Assembly: GCA_949082785.1 (NCBI GenBank)
Contig: CARVLU010000003.1
Span: 9,133 to 73,132 of the forward strand
Direction of reading: 5' to 3'
DNA length: 64,000 nucleotides
DNA from: an uncultured Alphaproteobacteria bacterium
Lineage (GTDB): Bacteria > Pseudomonadota > Alphaproteobacteria > Rs-D84
Positions within the stretch are counted from its first letter, which is position 1; every line of letters begins with the position of its first letter. The notes under the pieces were generated by a model that did not search any database, had not been told where the DNA came from, and worked only from the letters and a program-made list of their open reading frames with translations. Below, piece after piece: positions 13,464-49,800 of this stretch. Made by a program: the position numbers and the translations under genes.

Positions 13464-13491
13464 TTGCAACATTAACAAAATTCAATATAAT
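13464..13491 (+). promoter_or_regulatory. sigma70-type promoter TTGCAA-16-TATAAT for leader A
   Basis: near-consensus hexamers with 16-nt spacer directly upstream of conserved leader. Confidence 0.5.
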
Positions 13492-13497
13492 AACAAT

Positions 13498-13705
13498 CGA
13501 ATTCATTAGATTGGATTCGGGACGTCGAAAATCCCTTATTAGTCCGGCAGAAATGTCGTTAAAACATTATGGCTTTTGCCATTTCCCCGACACCAGGTCG
13601 GGTTGTTGCGGTTATACAACAGGATTTATCCGAAAACCGCAAGGTCATTGACTAATATGATTTTTCGAACTTCCCGACCACCAATATTTTGGTGGTTTTT
13701 GTTTA
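13498..13705 (+). promoter_or_regulatory. type-1a structured leader RNA (copy A) ending in intrinsic terminator GACCACCAATATTTTGGTGGTTTTT
   Basis: ~85% identical blocks with 22271-22484; 5' segment CGGGACGTCGAAAATC can pair with GATTTTTCGAACTTCCCG adjoining the terminator; conserved internal hairpins. Confidence 0.6.
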
Positions 13706-13736: not shown

Positions 13737-14192
13737 ATGAAAAAGCTGACAACATGTATTGCACTGGCCGCGATTTGCAGCCCCGCGCTGGGTATCGTCA
13801 CCAATCCCGACCTGTTGGCATGTTTATGCGATGATGCACTGACACCATCGGTCCCCCAGGGTTCATATTGTCCGGACGGAACATACTGTCCATATAAATG
13901 TCCGGGCTGCACCAATATCAATTGGACATCATCATCAACCGGGTATGAATCACGCATAAGGGCCACATGCGATATTTATTCAGGCAACTGTAACAAAACC
14001 ACCGAATATCGTTGCGCAGCCGGATATTACGGCAATACGTTAAATGGCAATTCCGGATGTTCGGCATGCCCCAGGGGCGGCACGTCCCCCGCCGGCAGCA
14101 AGTCCATAACATCATGCTATCTGCCCAATGGGACATCTGGGACCGACAGCACCGGCAGTTATGTTTATACATCAGATTGCTATTACAATTAA
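13737..14192 (+). CDS. secreted cysteine-rich protein, family member (signal peptide MKKLTTCIALAAICSPALG)
   Basis: 151 aa, 18 Cys; YRCAAGYYGN...SGCSACP...SCYLP...GSYVYTSDCYY shared module. Confidence 0.8.
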   Translation: MKKLTTCIALAAICSPALGIVTNPDLLACLCDDALTPSVPQGSYCPDGTYCPYKCPGCTNINWTSSSTGYESRIRATCDIYSGNCNKTTEYRCAAGYYGNTLNGNSGCSACPRGGTSPAGSKSITSCYLPNGTSGTDSTGSYVYTSDCYYN

Positions 14193-14447
14193 TCTGATGC
14201 CGGACAAGGCAAGAAAAAACACATCACCAACAGATAAAATCCCCGGCGAACGCCGGGGTGTCCTGGATTACTTCCGGGTCCCGCCATCGGGTTATCCCCG
14301 GTCGAAATTTTGAATATTGGGACCTTTAGAATGCCAACATTTTTTCGACCGGCCCAAAATGCCAGGGCATTCGGGCAATGGCGGGTTGTCGTTTTTGATG
14401 GTATGGTCATCGCGGTTTTCGAGAGAGAAAATCGTCCCCATCAACAA

Positions 14448-14640
14448 CAAAACCACCTGTGGATAAAGGTGGTTGGAGATTAGCAATCTATTAACAGTAA
14501 ATAGTGTCGATATTCAATATATTCTCGACTCTCCAACCCTGGTTGGATTTTTCATCTTGAAGCAAGACGACTGTTAAGGAGTGGCTAAACTCCACGATGT
14601 GAAATCCACATCGCATTTTAATTATATATAAATATTTTCT
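14448..14640 (-). ncRNA. orphan copy E of type-1b leader element (possible sRNA or decayed gene leader)
   Basis: contains hairpin with conserved loop GAATATATTGAATA, CCAACC/GGTTGGAG/CTCCAACC alternative pairing and terminator CCACCTTTATCCACAGGTGGTTTT; no cys-rich CDS downstream. Confidence 0.45.
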
Positions 14641-14707: not shown

Positions 14708-14905
14708 AACAAAACCACCAGAAAATTCAGGTGGTTGGAGATTAGCAACTATTAACAGTAATAGTGCGATATTCAATATATTTTCGACTCTCCAACCATG
14801 TTGGACTTTTACATCATGTCAAAAGACATAACGACTGTTAATAGGTTGCTAAACCCACATCGGCAACACGCCGACACGTAATATATTATATATGTTTTTT
14901 TTGCG
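14708..14905 (-). ncRNA. orphan copy F of type-1b leader element with own TATAAT promoter
   Basis: tandem duplicate of copy E (about 85% identity), conserved loop GAAAATATATTGAATA, terminator CCACCTGAATTTTCTGGTGGTTTT. Confidence 0.45.
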
Positions 14906-15057
14906 AATTCCAGGGATTTTTTATGGACGAATAAAGGCGATTGGGGTCTAAGAACTATCGTTCGATGAACATAGCACGATTTATTTGAATCAAAGATTCT
15001 TATTCATCGCACCCCAACCACATTTATTATACACATTTTTTCTGACAATTGTACGAA

Positions 15058-15545
15058 TTTTCTGGATTACCGGGCGCTTACTCTCCTTTGTCATTGCGAA
15101 CGAAGTGAAGCAATCCAGTCAAATAATGAACTATTCCTTGCTATTCCTGGATTGCCGCAGTCGTTTCACTCCCTCGCAATGACAGGGGTGTTTAATTGCT
15201 CAAAACCGGGCGCTTACTCTCCTTTGTCATTGCGAACGAAGTGAAGCAATCCAGTAAATAGTGAACTATTCCTTGCTATTCCTGGATTGCCACGCGGCGA
15301 CGTTCCGTCTTGCTCGCAATGACAGGGGTGTTTAATTGCTCAAAACCGGACACTTACTCTACTTTGTCATTGCGAACGAAGTGAAGCAATCCAGTGAATA
15401 TGAACCTTGCCGCTTTCCTGGATTGCCACGCGGCGACGTTCCGTCTTGCTCGCAATGACAATGGGGATGCAGCGCCTGGCTTTGTGTCTTGCCTGCTTCA
15501 TCACACTTGTTCATTGCGAGAGAAGCGACACAATCCAGTTAATAA
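15058..15545. repeat. three and a half tandem ~140-bp repeats, each containing an inverted pair TTGTCATTGCGAACGAAGTGAAGCAATCCAG / CTGGATTGCC...CGCAATGACA
   Basis: direct inspection; related units at 43738-43839 and 44336-44545. Confidence 0.85.
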
Positions 15546-22078: not shown

Positions 22079-22155
22079 GCGCCCATAGCTTAACTGGATA
22101 AAGCATCTGACTACGGATCAGAAGACTGCGGGTTCGAATCCTTCTGGGCGCGCCA
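22079..22155 (+). tRNA. tRNA-Arg (anticodon ACG)
   Basis: acceptor GCGCCCA/TGGGCGC, anticodon loop CTACGGA, T-loop TTCGAAT, encoded CCA. Confidence 0.9.
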
Positions 22156-22235: not shown

Positions 22236-22264
22236 TTGCCTGGGTTTTAATAAACGACTATAAT
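22236..22264 (+). promoter_or_regulatory. sigma70-type promoter TTGCCT-17-TATAAT for leader B
   Basis: hexamers and spacing. Confidence 0.5.
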
Positions 22265-22270
22265 ACTTTT

Positions 22271-22484
22271 TGAATCCACGGTTGTGGGTTCGGGACTTCG
22301 AAAATCCCTTATCTGGTCGACATATTGTGTATGTCGTTATTTTGTGCGCGGCGCCTTGCCACGCCCCCCGACATTGGTCGGGTTGTTGCAGTTATACAAC
22401 AGGGGCATCGCCCCAAAGGCTGCAAGGTCATTATCAGATATGATTTTTCGAACTTCCCGACCACCAGATTCTGGTGGTTTTCTT
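22271..22484 (+). promoter_or_regulatory. type-1a structured leader RNA (copy B) ending in terminator GACCACCAGATTCTGGTGGTTTT
   Basis: homologous to 13498-13705 including GGGTTCGGGACTTCGAAAATCCC, GGTCGGGTTGTTGCAGTTATACAACAGG, GCAAGGTCATT, GATTTTTCGAACTTCCCGACCACC. Confidence 0.6.
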
Positions 22485-22497
22485 TGATAACCAAAGG

Positions 22498-23109
22498 ATG
22501 GAAGAAGTGAAGAAAATCAAACAAATAGGTAAAGTCTGGATAATGCTGACGCTGGTCATTATCCCCGGCGTGGCACGGGCGCTGTTGGTGCCACCGGTGG
22601 GCGAATGCGTGGGCGGCACATGCCCCAGCGATGGGCAATATATTGATGGCATCATGTACGGATGCGGGCGTGCAACGGAATGTTACTGCGTCAACAGTGA
22701 CGGCGAAGGAATCAATGTTCCCTGTGGATGCTTTGGCGACGCGGATTGCAAAACCAGCGGTTACGGATGTATTAACGGCCAATGCGCAAAATGCCGCAGT
22801 TGTACAAATTGTACCAGCAGCAACACCTGGGATTCTGTCGCCACCGGGTATCAACGCCGGACCACAAAAACATGTGGGTGTGACGGGACATGCAACACGT
22901 CATATTCTTACCGATGCGCACCCGGATATTTCGGCAACAGTTATAACGGCACATCGGGATGCACGCGTTGCCCGACCGACGGGGGCGTTACCGGGACATC
23001 TGTGGCGGGAACAACCGCACGAACGGGATGCTATGTCGGGGCAAACACGACGGGCCGCGATAATTCCGGGGCGTTTGAATTTACCGGAAATTCTTATTAT
23101 TGTGACTAA
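22498..23109 (+). CDS. secreted cysteine-rich protein, family member (signal peptide MEEVKKIKQIGKVWIMLTLVIIPGVARA)
   Basis: AAGGA SD 5 nt upstream; 28 Cys; CTNCTSSNTWDSVATGYQRR...YRCAPGYFGN...SGCTRCP...GAFEFTGNSYYCD shared module. Confidence 0.8.
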   Translation: MEEVKKIKQIGKVWIMLTLVIIPGVARALLVPPVGECVGGTCPSDGQYIDGIMYGCGRATECYCVNSDGEGINVPCGCFGDADCKTSGYGCINGQCAKCRSCTNCTSSNTWDSVATGYQRRTTKTCGCDGTCNTSYSYRCAPGYFGNSYNGTSGCTRCPTDGGVTGTSVAGTTARTGCYVGANTTGRDNSGAFEFTGNSYYCD

Positions 23110-43545: not shown

Positions 43546-43737
43546 AGATTCACCTTTGGGTAAGACTTATGTCCTAAAAATAATATTTGTCAACACGTTT
43601 GTCAAGGATTATTTGCCACAAAAATATATTTTTGTCAAATACGCATCCCGCCCCATCGATGTGTTATGACGCCCCAGGGCATGGCGCGGGGGATTTTTAT
43701 GGACCGGACAGCCCGCGCATCCGCGCAACATTATTGA

Positions 43738-43839
43738 CTGGATTGCTTCGCCGATGGCTCGCAATGACAAAGGAGATGCAGTGCCAGGCAATTCAACATC
43801 CTTGTCATTGCGAGCCACGACAGTGGCGCGGCAATCCAG
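43738..43839. repeat. palindromic repeat unit pair (CTGGATTGCTTCGCC...GCTCGCAATGACAA / TTGTCATTGCGAGC...GCAATCCAG)
   Basis: same family as 15058-15545 and 44336-44545. Confidence 0.8.
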
Positions 43840-43877
43840 TCAATAAACCAACACACCTGGCGTGATATAATTCTTGA

Positions 43878-44063
43878 ACATTCGCGCGGGATGCGATATA
43901 CTGGATTCGCATTGGGAAACCGGTGTAGGCTTAGAAACCTTTTCACATCGTCGGAATCGACGTAAAACTCCAACTGTTGGTTGGGGGGCTGCGAATATAT
44001 TGAATAAGCAGCGCTATCCATGTGAATAGTTTCTAACCTCCAACCGCCCACAATGTTGTCGGG
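43878..44063 (+). promoter_or_regulatory. type-1b leader copy G upstream of XRE-like regulator: TG-extended -10 promoter, hairpin with loop GAATATATTGAATA, terminator CCGCCCACAATGTTGTCGGGCGGTGTTTTTT
   Basis: shares conserved loop and CTCCAAC/GGTTGG/CCTCCAACC alternative-pairing logic with copies C-F. Confidence 0.5.
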
Positions 44064-44097
44064 CGGTGTTTTTTATAACGTAAAAGGAGTTTAAACT

Positions 44098-44325
44098 ATG
44101 TCAAAAATATTAATCGATGCCCAGTATTACGGCAATATCATGCGCTGTGCGCGACAACATTTGAAAATCAGTGCCGGTGACGCGGCGGCATTATTGAAAA
44201 TGACCAAGAAAGATTATCTGAAATGTGAACGTGGCCGCGATTTGTTCGCAGAAGGTACCCTGCGCCGCGTTTTCCATGGTGCGTTTGCGATGTTGATTAT
44301 CAAGCGTGGCCGCGTCGCGTGTTGA
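44098..44325 (+). CDS. small XRE/Cro-like HTH DNA-binding protein (tentative)
   Basis: AAAGGAG SD 7 nt upstream; ISAGDAAALLKMTKKDYLKCERGR resembles HTH_XRE. Confidence 0.55.
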   Translation: MSKILIDAQYYGNIMRCARQHLKISAGDAAALLKMTKKDYLKCERGRDLFAEGTLRRVFHGAFAMLIIKRGRVAC

Positions 44326-44335
44326 CGTGGCGCGT

Positions 44336-44545
44336 TGTCATTGCGAGCAAGTCGCGACGCAGCGTAGCGAAGACGGACGCCGCGTGGCAATCCAGGAAAG
44401 TGACAGCGCGCATTATTCACTGGATTGCTTCGCCGGTGGCTCGCAATGACAAAGAAGATAATGGGCCTGGCTGTTAAACACCCTTGTCATTGCGAGCAAG
44501 TCGCAACGTAGCGTAGCGAAGACGGACGCCGCGTGGCAATCCAGG
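44336..44545. repeat. three palindromic repeat units (TTGTCATTGCGAGCAAGTCGC...GCGTGGCAATCCAGG family)
   Basis: direct inspection. Confidence 0.8.
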
Positions 44546-44565
44546 AAATGACAATGGTGACGAAA

Positions 44566-48136: not shown

Positions 48137-48348
48137 GCCCGAACGTGTTGTTTGGGCGGGGCCTCATAACCTCTGATTTAGGCGTCGGAATTCATTCAAA
48201 TGGCGGGCCACGCGCACCCATTTTATGATGCAGACGAAAATAAAACTCCTGATTTTCCGGTCAGGAGGGTTGTGGAATATCAAATACGCAACGCAATTCC
48301 TAAAAATTGTTATGAGCCTCCTGACCACCAATTTGTTGGTGGTTTTTG
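48137..48348 (+). promoter_or_regulatory. type-1b structured leader RNA (copy C) with antiterminator/terminator alternative pairing and terminator CCTGACCACCAATTTGTTGGTGGTTTTT
   Basis: CTCCTGA/TCAGGAGG hairpin; GGTCAGGAGG can alternatively pair CCTCCTGACC overlapping terminator 5' arm; hairpin GTTGTGG-AATATCAAATAC-GCAAC. Confidence 0.6.
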
Positions 48349-48372: not shown

Positions 48373-48708
48373 ATGAAGCAACATTTAACAGTCGCCCTGG
48401 TGGCCATACCCATTTGGGCGGCGACATTACCCCACGGCATGGCCGCATGCCAAAGCATGATTCAATGCCGGCAATCCGCGGGCAACAATTGCAACTGTTG
48501 TCCGACCGGGACATCCGAAACACAATACACGTGCCCCGACGGATGGGATGCCCGCGGCAGCCAATGTTACCGGGACGCAACCCGTTCATCGGACAGCATC
48601 GGATACACCGAAACCACATACGGCACATGCGCCGGAACGGCGGGCGGCTTTGTCCAATGCTACAAAGCCCAATGCGGAAACCCGATTCCAAACTGCAAGC
48701 TTTTATAA
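48373..48708 (+). CDS. secreted cysteine-rich protein (N-module-type), family member
   Basis: GGAGG SD; signal peptide MKQHLTVALVAIPIWAATLPHGMAA; 14 Cys; ends 14 nt before next gene. Confidence 0.7.
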   Translation: MKQHLTVALVAIPIWAATLPHGMAACQSMIQCRQSAGNNCNCCPTGTSETQYTCPDGWDARGSQCYRDATRSSDSIGYTETTYGTCAGTAGGFVQCYKAQCGNPIPNCKLL

Positions 48709-48722
48709 CGGGGGTACTGGAA

Positions 48723-48998
48723 ATGAAGAAATTTGTATTCTGTGCCATCATGGCATGTATCAGCGGTGCGGCGTACGGGGCATGCACAACGGCCGGCACC
48801 ACATATTACGCGTGCAAGCCGGGGTATTATCTGTCGTCCGGAAATTGTGTCCGGTGCCCGTCATCCAGCGATGGATACGGCACAACAACGGACACCAACA
48901 CCGGCGGGCGCACATCATGCTATGTCCCGTCGGGCACCACCGGCAGCGATGGGTCGGGTTCATATACATACATGGCCAATTGCCATTATGTGGAATAA
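48723..48998 (+). CDS. secreted cysteine-rich protein (C-module-type), family member
   Basis: signal peptide MKKFVFCAIMACISGAAYG; YYACKPGYYLSSGNCVRCP...SCYVP...GSYTYMANCHY shared module. Confidence 0.7.
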   Translation: MKKFVFCAIMACISGAAYGACTTAGTTYYACKPGYYLSSGNCVRCPSSSDGYGTTTDTNTGGRTSCYVPSGTTGSDGSGSYTYMANCHYVE

Positions 48999-49015: not shown

Positions 49016-49600
49016 CTATTGAATATAATAGCAATCCTGGGTGAACGTGAAACTGCCCGCGGAATCTGCCCCATTGTTCCCGGCCGCCAGATAACATGAT
49101 GTAATCGCGGTGGCCCCGGGGGCGGACGTGGCATTCATATTATGGGCGGGCGAACACTGCGTACATCCCGACGTGCCGTTGGTGGTCGTGCCCCAATAAC
49201 CGGCCGCGCATCTGTATTCCCACGATGTTTTGCATGTATTGCAATCACACCGCCGCATGGCCCGCCGTTCATATCCCGCACCCCCCGCCGACCAAGTGGC
49301 GTCACTGACACAATTGCTGCACCCGGTACAGGATTTTTCACAAACGCTGTATTCATAACTGCATCCGGTTTTGCTGTCATACCCCGTTTTTTCAACCAAA
49401 GTAAAACCGGTGCGACATGTGCGACATGTGGTCACCCGTTCCCCGTTCATGCACCCCAATGTCGTTCCATCGGAACATCCAAATATAATGGGCATCTGGC
49501 CGTCATCCGTGCAATGTTCCCATGAACACACCAGTGCATGCGCGCCGCGCACCAACATCAGATTCATCCCCGCAGCAATAACCGCAGCATATAATTTCAT
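49016..49600 (-). CDS. secreted cysteine-rich protein, family member
   Basis: AAAGGAG SD; signal peptide MKLYAAVIAAGMNLMLVRGAHA; CSNCVSDATWSAGGAGYERR...YRCAAGYWGT...SGCTQCS...GSFTFTQDCYYIQ closely parallels 22498 gene. Confidence 0.8.
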   Translation of the reverse strand: MKLYAAVIAAGMNLMLVRGAHALVCSWEHCTDDGQMPIIFGCSDGTTLGCMNGERVTTCRTCRTGFTLVEKTGYDSKTGCSYEYSVCEKSCTGCSNCVSDATWSAGGAGYERRAMRRCDCNTCKTSWEYRCAAGYWGTTTNGTSGCTQCSPAHNMNATSAPGATAITSCYLAAGNNGADSAGSFTFTQDCYYIQ

Positions 49601-49604
49601 TCAA

Positions 49605-49800
49605 ACACTCCTTTTTTCTTCAACGAATGAAAAAGCCACCAAAATTCAGGTGGCAGGAGGTTCGAAACTATCTGTAAAAAATAGCAGTGTGCTTTCAATA
49701 TATAACACACTCCCCCTGCCCGCATAAAGACAGGGTCGCTTTACGTCCGCCGACGTTTACAGAAGGGTTTCGACGCCCCGACATCGGAATTCCCGATGCT
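49605..49800 (-). promoter_or_regulatory. type-1b leader RNA copy D (minus strand) with terminator GCCACCTGAATTTTGGTGGCTTTTT
   Basis: 5' CGGGAATTCCGATGTCGGGGCGTCGAAACCC resembles copies A/B; hairpin GTGTG-TTATATATTGAAAG-CACAC; AGTTTCGAACCTCCTGCCACC before terminator. Confidence 0.55.

Follow-up and report, generated by a model that had tools for sequence, protein, structure and literature searches.

In riboswitches of the ON type, of which the pbuE adenine riboswitch is an example, the stem that closes the junction has a 3′ strand overlapping the 5′ strand of the terminator, so that the folded domain prevents termination. The C4 antisense RNA (RF01695) of the immI operon of phages P1 and P7 is said to have an a1b1/a2b2 layout and to be processed by RNase P, as reportedly described by Citron and Schuster in 1990 and by Hartmann et al. 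in 1995. Its recognition segments are complementary to upstream (decoy) and downstream ribosome-binding-site copies. Expression of Ant is controlled by C4 RNA (PMC8201110). A third system, sRNA-Xcc1 (RF02221), was first found as an 88-nt RNA in an integron cassette of Xanthomonas campestris and was detected in Xanthomonas by Northern blot and RACE (rapid amplification of cDNA ends; PMC2996969); the Rfam model and the accounts found in the literature present it as an 87-88-nt small RNA (sRNA) without a 5′ module. Here these systems are compared with two leader RNAs, A (13498-13705) and B (22271-22484), both on the + strand of a 64,000-nt stretch, hereafter the window, of contig CARVLU010000003.1 from an uncultured Alphaproteobacteria bacterium.

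Judged by sequence, leaders A and B are diverged relatives of the sRNA-Xcc1 RNAs of phages and integrons. With a probability of roughly 0.6, they would act as cis-acting transcription attenuators with two mutually exclusive folds. The cis-acting reading is supported by the leaders' own promoters, by a covarying long-range helix and by the position of the downstream genes: the first same-strand open reading frame (ORF) begins no more than 40 nt from the terminator in 63/72 loci of the family.

Layout and long-range fold of leaders A and B

A preliminary description of this DNA had placed two related leaders upstream of cysteine-rich genes, and both are present as described. Each comprises a promoter, a structured leader of about 200 nt and an intrinsic terminator, followed 30-40 nt further on by a cysteine-rich gene with a signal peptide. 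In A, the promoter scan found a sigma-70-type promoter (13464-13491, +; −35 TTGCAA, 16-nt spacer, −10 TATAAT; 10/12 matches), implying a transcription start near 13498, and no promoter-like site on the + strand between terminator and gene; in the family alignments a TATAAT-like box stands at an equal distance in every member. Leader B with its promoter occupies 22259-22484 (+), the −10 box being at 22259-22264; a tRNA-Arg(ACG) gene with its own terminator (22079-22155, +) lies directly upstream of this promoter. The terminator of A (13676-13704, +), GACCACCAA-UAUU-UUGGUGGUU followed by a U tract, was recovered by the terminator scan (9 pairs) and by RNAfold, and its counterpart in B lies at 22459-22479, again followed by a U tract. 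A G+C-rich hairpin, a U tract, a gene just downstream and the lack of an intervening promoter give these leaders the make-up of intrinsic-terminator attenuators.

Aligned over about 340 columns, A and B share a mean column identity of 79%, distributed as a mosaic: 94% in the 5′ block (hairpin a and b5), 92% across the junction strand J3/1, S4 and the terminator, 50% in the 8-nt segments c5 and c3, whose changes are mutually compensatory, and 36-54% in the flanks. The proteins encoded downstream are 41% identical to each other. Together these figures exclude a single recent segmental duplication, which the preliminary description had named as an outcome that would undo its proposal. The conserved blocks lie far outside chance expectation: the 28-nt core block occurs exactly twice within the window (0 expected), and the terminator CCACC-N-GGTGGYTTT occurs six times against 0.01 expected.

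From the 5′ end, leader A (+ strand) contains hairpin P0 (13499-13518; RNAfold, with an equivalent hairpin in the family alignments), hairpin a (GGGA/UCCC, 13519-13535), whose loop holds b5 (UCGAAAAUC, 13525-13533), and c5 (UAUUAGUC, 13537-13544), the 5′ strand of a hypervariable long-range helix c. Two variable internal hairpins predicted by RNAfold and RNAalifold, Px (13545-13558) and Py (13569-13582), follow within 13545-13582, then the S2:S3 hairpin (CCCGAC/GUCGGG, 13586-13602), and further on come c3 (GACUAAUA, in the loop of P3, 13650-13657) and b3 (GAUUUUUCGA, the 3′ strand of P3 with J3/1), which together span 13650-13668 and are the partners of c5 and b5, and S4 (UUCCCGACC, 13671-13679). 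The same parts occur on the + strand of leader B as P0 (22272-22291), hairpin a (22292-22308), c5 (22310-22317), S2:S3 (22367-22382), c3 (22433-22440), b3 (22442-22451) and S4 (22454-22462).

A long-range pairing of the 5′ block with the 3′ block abutting the terminator, as had been proposed, is seen in the minimum-free-energy (MFE) structures given by RNAfold for both leaders (A, −74.4 kcal/mol, z −6.5; B, −91.4 kcal/mol, z −6.9), in which the long-range helix adjoins a 9-bp terminator. The same structure, termed Fold 1, is the minimum also for copy D, another of the seven copies (A-G) in the window. Its order is P0, a long closing helix, the small internal hairpins, S2:S3, the P2 stem and the abutting terminator, and the three parts of the long helix are a5 paired to the first half of S4, b5 paired to J3/1 and c5 paired to the P3 loop. 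RNAalifold, applied to A, B and four relatives of type 1a, gives Fold 1 independently, with 19/59 pairs compensated.

Comparison across the family relied on a covariance model, R1, built from six copy-D-like sequences with the long-range fold (effective sequence number 1.03); its E-values are rough and its alignment favours Fold 1. With 76 distinct sequences aligned to R1, Fold 1 is paired in 96.0% of cells against 71.2% after shuffling, 39/44 pairs are changed on both sides, and the covariation score of 0.576 (0.151 shuffled) is reached by 0/500 shuffles and falls to at most 0.068 when the partners are slid by 1-3 columns, although many sequences from metagenome-assembled genomes (MAGs) are related, so that the shuffle controls overstate independence. 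Px (helix 6; RNAalifold base pairs 31:47 and 34:44), S2:S3 (helix 7) and the terminator stem (helix 9) all show compensatory changes. Since this alignment was fitted to Fold 1, a permutation test was added in which the pairing was re-optimised each time. Over 72 loci the segment after UCGAAA is complementary to the P3-loop region only within its own locus, with a mean run of 8.4 nt against 5.6 ± 0.13 nt when partners are swapped, and 0/300 permutations attain the observed mean. Plain MAFFT alignments of subtype II (the copy-D type) are out of structural register in helix c, which is why covariance-model alignment and anchor-based permutation tests were used.

The strongest covariation lies in the short hypervariable helix c (13537-13544/13650-13657 in A; UAUCUGGU with AUCAGAUA in B, from the permutation test and per-pair counts), which the preliminary description had not flagged. 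Helix b covaries as a block, being UCGAAAC/GUUUCGA in most copies, UUAGCAAC/GUUGCUAA in copies E and F and UUAGAAAC/GUUUCUAA in copy G. Among the local hairpins noted earlier, CCGAC/GTCGG holds and covaries, and the compensated pair GGA-TTTAT-CC and GGGGC-ATC-GCCCC is recovered by RNAalifold as the distal part of P2. The third, TGTTG/CAACA, does exist in A and B, but it competes with a covarying P2 stem (TTGCGGTT/AACCGCAA in A, CCACAGA/TCTGTGG in relative L040), is broken in relative L073 and is probably not the relevant pairing.

The conserved core had also been read as a possible small coding frame, GRVVAVIQQ, and attenuation by a leader peptide would mean that translation of a small ORF through the S2/S3 region selects between hairpins. 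The frame is indeed open through the core in both A and B, yet it is not conserved in relatives: in L073 it has upstream stop codons and no start codon, ORFs that begin with ATG run in differing frames in A, L093 and L040, and no such ORF lies inside leaders B, C or D. Over 77 leaders the longest ATG-started ORF has a median of 16 codons and no fixed position, and substitutions are compensatory in stems rather than synonymous. Leader-peptide control was rejected as contradicted by the relatives, and is extremely improbable.

The sRNA-Xcc1-like core and its relatives

At Rfam gathering thresholds the window yields four tRNAs only, so the leader is not a curated riboswitch or leader; in particular, neither the Rfam riboswitch families nor C4 match anywhere in the window. 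With relaxed thresholds sRNA-Xcc1 is the only recurrent match, at the equivalent position in A (41.2 bits; E 4.9e-6 for a 401-nt stretch, 7.8e-4 for the whole window), B (30.2 bits) and D (30.8 bits), all below the gathering score of 53. cmscan places all three on all 87 positions of RF02221, and the 3′ half of the leader is a diverged sRNA-Xcc1 core, a relation absent from the preliminary description. In A this core forms a three-way junction (13596-13687, +) with P1 (13596-13602/13673-13679), P2 (13603-13642, internal loop AUACAACA) and P3 (13643-13662); compensatory changes occur in all three stems. The core of B spans 22376-22470.

Window leaders and sRNA-Xcc1 have in common a 7-10-bp P1 (GGYCGGG.../...CCCGRCC), P3, an ACC after P1 and the P2 internal loop AAUACAAYA...GAA. 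The unpaired nucleotides conserved in RF02221, the P2 loop AAUACAAUA/GAA and the junction UUugAg, are found again in A and B as UAUACAACA with GAAAA or CAAAG and as UUUUCGAAC. Members from E. coli and Aeromonas carry AAUACAACA or AAUAAAAUA in the loop (AAUACAACA in the E. coli prophage copy) and share an identical junction UUUCGAAC; subtype II, represented by copy D, retains only the fused loop AUAUAUUGAAAG. The P2 loop (AUACAAYA...GAA) is the only primary-sequence feature common to all forms and would be the likeliest site for recognition by a ligand or protein. Processing of a tRNA-like or RNase P kind at P1 followed by ACC is speculation; the ACC also belongs to the terminator stem, and the Nitratidesulfovibrio copy lacks it.

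Genuine RF02221 loci score 67.7-75.7 bits. Above the Rfam threshold are loci from Aeromonas caviae (71.6 bits), Neisseria gonorrhoeae (68.8 bits), a Nitratidesulfovibrio plasmid (69.7 bits) and an E. coli prophage (72.1 bits), as well as 15 further viral contigs (16/20 loci in that scan). In 4/4 genuine loci inspected by eye, a promoter lies about 100-120 nt upstream of the Rfam match; next come a hairpin, with a loop that can pair with the junction strand, and a segment complementary to the P3 loop. This 5′ module is the one found in A, B and the whole family. Helix b reads UCGAAAC/GUUUCGA, UAAGAAC/GUUCUUA or CUUGAACA/UGUUCAAG among the genuine loci, the long-range helix is their minimum-energy fold too, and the E. 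coli copy has both the S2:S3 hairpin and GAGG-CGUCGAAA-CCUC, the same hairpin as subtype II of the window. It follows that the Rfam model covers only the 3′ domain of a longer conserved leader. R1 missed three genuine Xcc1 loci, which weighs little against homology given how narrow that model is.

Phage-type leaders carry a further element downstream. A second UUCGAA or UCGAAA occurs no more than 45 nt after P1 in 42/43 distinct leaders, with a locus-specific c5 copy behind it that extends into the Shine-Dalgarno sequence, and the P3 region is complementary to the downstream 110 nt over a run of 8.67 nt against 7.09 ± 0.17 nt in permutations (maximum 7.53). Such an arrangement implies that Xcc1 may be the core of a decoy-antisense-target leader. 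A T run after the hairpin is present in 4/43. The genes close behind these leaders, on the same strand, encode an ORF6N protein or an AntA/AntB antirepressor; symE in this position has been reported (bioRxiv 10.1101/2025.06.18.660453), and ORF6N there has likewise been published. Genuine sRNA-Xcc1 loci with the 5′ module and this third b/c copy were located at 2380-2630 of locus L123 (E. coli STEC383 prophage), 1379-1620 of L120, 1355-1620 of L122 and in viral loci L124-L231, and a similar Xcc1 core occurs in 114/5426 (about 2%) complete E. coli genomes. A spacer block, CCCGUCAG(M)CGU(R)GUUUUUUUAUGCC, stands between 5′ module and Xcc1 core in Aeromonas and Nitratidesulfovibrio and in similar form in E. 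coli (L120 1415-1450, L122 1408-1445, L123 2425-2455). P22-type sar RNA is also found on two contigs with Xcc1 loci.

The window family differs from these leaders in ending with an intrinsic terminator and in having no copy of b or c at the downstream ribosome-binding site: its complementary run to the downstream 110 nt (6.89 nt) does not exceed that of permuted pairs (7.05 ± 0.12), and a second TTCGAA follows in 1/76 loci. It is chromosomal, with many copies in gut Alphaproteobacteria. Phage-type Xcc1 resembles C4 in being a structured RNA in the leader of an antirepressor operon; for A and B this resemblance holds by descent only, and the window leaders lack a downstream target copy and are terminator-ended. 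A C4-like target at the downstream ribosome-binding site was rejected for the window family by the permutation test.

The same comparison bears on the view that the leaders are mainly stable sRNA genes, like the 88-nt sRNA-Xcc1, whose terminated or processed transcript acts as antisense in trans, with read-through being secondary. The closest known family is after all an sRNA by Northern blot and RACE (PMC2996969), every copy comes with a promoter and a terminator of its own, phage-type leaders have a P3 loop and J3/1 antisense to a ribosome-binding site, and the tandem copies E and F, which have no convincing ORF downstream, recall the five tandem Xcc1 copies in Xylella (PMC12189769). Such a role is nevertheless unlikely in the window family, where the P3 loop lacks locus-specific downstream complementarity, where the MFE fold of the full-length RNA already engages the putative antisense loop in cis pairing, and where the short distance from terminator to same-strand ORF in 63/72 loci leaves no space for another promoter.

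The preliminary proposal, which had started from two copies, now has the support of the large covarying family to which A and B belong, with about 80 relatives outside the window. A scan of species-representative genomes with a pattern derived from A, B and D, requiring TTTCGAAC and a CCACC..GGTGGYTTT terminator, returned at least 117 stretches, with about 80 true relatives among the matches listed; in that set, then, the pattern itself guarantees that these two blocks are conserved. The pattern played no part in finding copies C, E, F and G or the phage-type loci, and the terminators of C, E, F and G were recovered without requiring it. The terminator-type pattern found no matches in the viral collection. 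R1 gave 77 matches with E < 6e-5 in 90 sources. The relatives among the matches listed all come from gut or rumen Alphaproteobacteria MAGs, including Ca. Enterousia, "Azospirillum sp. 51_20"-type bins and "Rickettsiales" bins, and a locus in MAG JAIDWS01 is nearly identical to B. Two subtypes can be distinguished, I (like A and B) and II (like D). Downstream products have a signal-peptide or membrane-type N-terminus in 47/72 loci by a crude test, and other genes behind the leaders encode a Stealth/GT2 enzyme, a cytidylyltransferase, helix-turn-helix proteins and a UvrD-like helicase. Some of these lineages, Ca. Enterousia among them, have genomes smaller than 1 Mb and a presumed lifestyle of interaction with other cells (PMC12306168).

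Two exclusive folds and a proposed switch

A second fold, which the preliminary description did not include, is mutually exclusive with Fold 1. In this sRNA-Xcc1-type three-way junction (Fold 2), S3 pairs with all of S4 as P1, P3 is self-closed, b3 serves as a junction strand and a5:a3 pairs locally. S4 is common to three pairings, its partners in A being a5 in the long-range fold, S3 in P1 and the terminator stem through GACC; S2 is a near-copy of S4, which is the 3′ strand of P1, and S2, S3 and S4 vary in concert over at least six sequence classes. The a5 strand (13519-13522) has an alternative partner in UCCC at 13672-13675, and both a5:a3 and a5:S4 covary across the family. Counted on the alignment fitted to Fold 1, the helices specific to Fold 2 (a5:a3, P1 and P3) pair in 83.5% of cells against 75.1% after shuffling, with a covariation score of 0.289 against 0.175 (0/500 shuffles) and at most 0.096 in slid controls.

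In A, P1 (13596-13602/13673-13679) and the terminator stem overlap by 4 nt, at 13676-13679. P1 takes GACC from the terminator stem and would thereby act as an antiterminator, that is, as a predicted exclusive pairing that shares terminator-stem nucleotides. Helix c in turn fills the P3 loop and leaves 0-1 nt before the 3′ strand of P3, so that helix c and P3 presumably cannot coexist, in which case the RNA could adopt one fold or the other but not both. On this geometry a compact pseudoknot containing helix c together with the P3 stem was rejected, since 0-1 nt would have to cross a helix of 6-8 bp.

On the best reading, the attenuator would be OFF by default. In the thermodynamically preferred Fold 1, a5, b5 and c5 would pair with the first half of S4, J3/1 and the P3 loop; with S2:S3 paired and the last four nucleotides of S4 free, the 9-bp terminator would form and transcription would stop before the gene. 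In Fold 2, P1 would remove GACC from the terminator stem and allow read-through into the secreted-protein gene (ON). The pairing of the 5′ segment with P3 and J3/1 may serve as a second lock that holds the RNA in the terminating fold. Candidate triggers are a small ligand or protein at the P2 loop (AUACAACA...GAA), processing of the 5′ segment, or a trans-acting RNA.

The competing 1:2, 2:3 and 3:4 segments of classical attenuators and of the pbuE type have a counterpart here in S2, S3, S4 and the terminator. Unlike those systems, the window leaders add a second layer of competition, of the 5′ segment with P3 and J3/1 and of a5 with a3 and S4, and, in contrast to the pbuE type, their downstream genes are functionally mixed instead of belonging to one pathway and point to no particular ligand.

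A simpler scheme would keep the long-range fold fixed and leave control to an antitermination factor from outside the leader, with RNA polymerase or the terminator itself as its target, the junction pairings being ancestral relics. Fold 1 is much more stable than Fold 2 and its covariation is stronger, and the diversity of the downstream genes would fit a global factor. We consider this scheme improbable: S4 has remained fully complementary to S3 through at least six coordinated classes, which Fold 1 does not need, P3 and a5:a3 contain compensated changes, and it is difficult to see, if the RNA does not switch, why every strand paired in Fold 1 should have another partner.

Several points nonetheless weigh against a two-state attenuator. 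The costs of enforcing P1 are considerable, at 13.4 (A), 11.3 (B) and 8.7 (D) kcal/mol in the full-length RNA and 8.8 (A), 3.6 (B) and 5.3 (D) kcal/mol in RNA cut before the 3′ strand of the terminator, so Fold 2 must have some stabilising or kinetic influence on its side. Its covariation is the weaker of the two and could partly be inheritance from phage-type ancestors, in which the junction had another role; the alignment behind the Fold 1 counts was itself fitted to that fold, and in most relatives the conservation of TTTCGAAC and of the terminator is owed to the scan pattern. For copies E and F, no gene is evident that they might regulate. Finally, we infer both actual termination and read-through at the leaders and a signal-driven interconversion of the two folds, and it is by inference that one passes from two covarying folds to regulated termination.

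Further copies in the window and biological meaning

Copy D had been linked to A and B by a common 5′ block; the relation stands, because R1, built from D-like sequences only, finds A (13518-13701, +; 37.3 bits, E 5e-7) and B (22291-22484, +; 29.6 bits, E 5e-5) over their full length. Copy D itself (49630-49780, −; R1 145.9 bits) lies upstream of the cysteine-rich gene 49016-49600 (−), and copy C (48178-48348, +; R1 54.7 bits) upstream of the cysteine-rich genes 48373-48708 and 48723-48998 (both +). Together with the genes behind A (13737-14192, +; 151 aa, signal peptide, 15 cysteines) and B (22507-23109, +), these encode paralogous small secreted cysteine-rich proteins with a common C-terminal module, YRCAxGYxG..NG.SGC..CP....SCY..G..G.D..GS..T..CYY. 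Pfam gave no match for the cysteine-rich proteins of the window. The 151-aa member has identical copies in hundreds of public assembly blocks. In copy D, the 5′ part (P0 and hairpin a; 49724-49799, −) weakly matches the isrK family (14.5 bits, E 0.65), probably by chance; isrK, C4 and Xcc1 have been reported as neighbours in a Xylella prophage region.

Copies E (14709-14857, −; R1 64.1 bits) and F (14447-14594, −; R1 53.0 bits) form a tandem with a spacing of 262 nt, reminiscent of the published tandem Xcc1 arrays of Xylella. Behind F lie about 190 nt without an assigned feature (region 14200-14446, −), with a separate terminator at its end (14258-14241). Copy G (43924-44072, +; R1 71.3 bits), which the preliminary description did not contain, has the terminator CCGCCC..GGGCGG and precedes an ORF (44098-44325) for a non-secreted product of 75 aa without a Pfam match. 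This copy and its small ORF are flanked by one of two clusters of imperfect palindromic repeats (15037-15490 and 43729-44550; GTCATTGCGAGC ... GGATTGC(C/T), in both orientations). A 388-nt inverted repeat (37123-37510/39729-40116, 74% complementary) lies within two ORFs, each of about 360 aa, which stand in opposite orientation on either side of tRNA-Gln and are probably diverged paralogues.

It is tempting to speculate, though we regard it as very unlikely, that Xcc1-type RNAs represent one ancient riboregulator design of decoy, antisense core and target that was rewired in gut Alphaproteobacteria into a self-reinforcing, locus-specific ON switch. The Rfam model would then capture the core only, and the target in phages would be the ribosome-binding site of antirepressor-type genes. 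In the genome-reduced gut Alphaproteobacteria the leader's own 5′ segment would be the sole target and transcription termination the output; helix c being locus-specific, a processed core might bind the nascent 5′ segment of its own locus and block the OFF fold. If so, each of dozens of genes for secreted or surface proteins would have its own heritable RNA switch, and the expression of surface proteins could vary without DNA rearrangement.

As for the attenuator reading, the switch layout predicts specific mutations in S2, S3, S4 and c5/c3, and the 5′ module allows a fuller covariance model for searching such elements. The comparison indicates that sRNA-Xcc1, hitherto treated as a trans-acting sRNA of 87-88 nt, is the 3′ domain of a longer two-state leader spanning Proteobacteria, phages and plasmids. 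In uncultured gut Alphaproteobacteria, a large part of the repertoire of secreted and surface proteins is probably gated by this high-copy leader, which occurs seven times within 64 kb.

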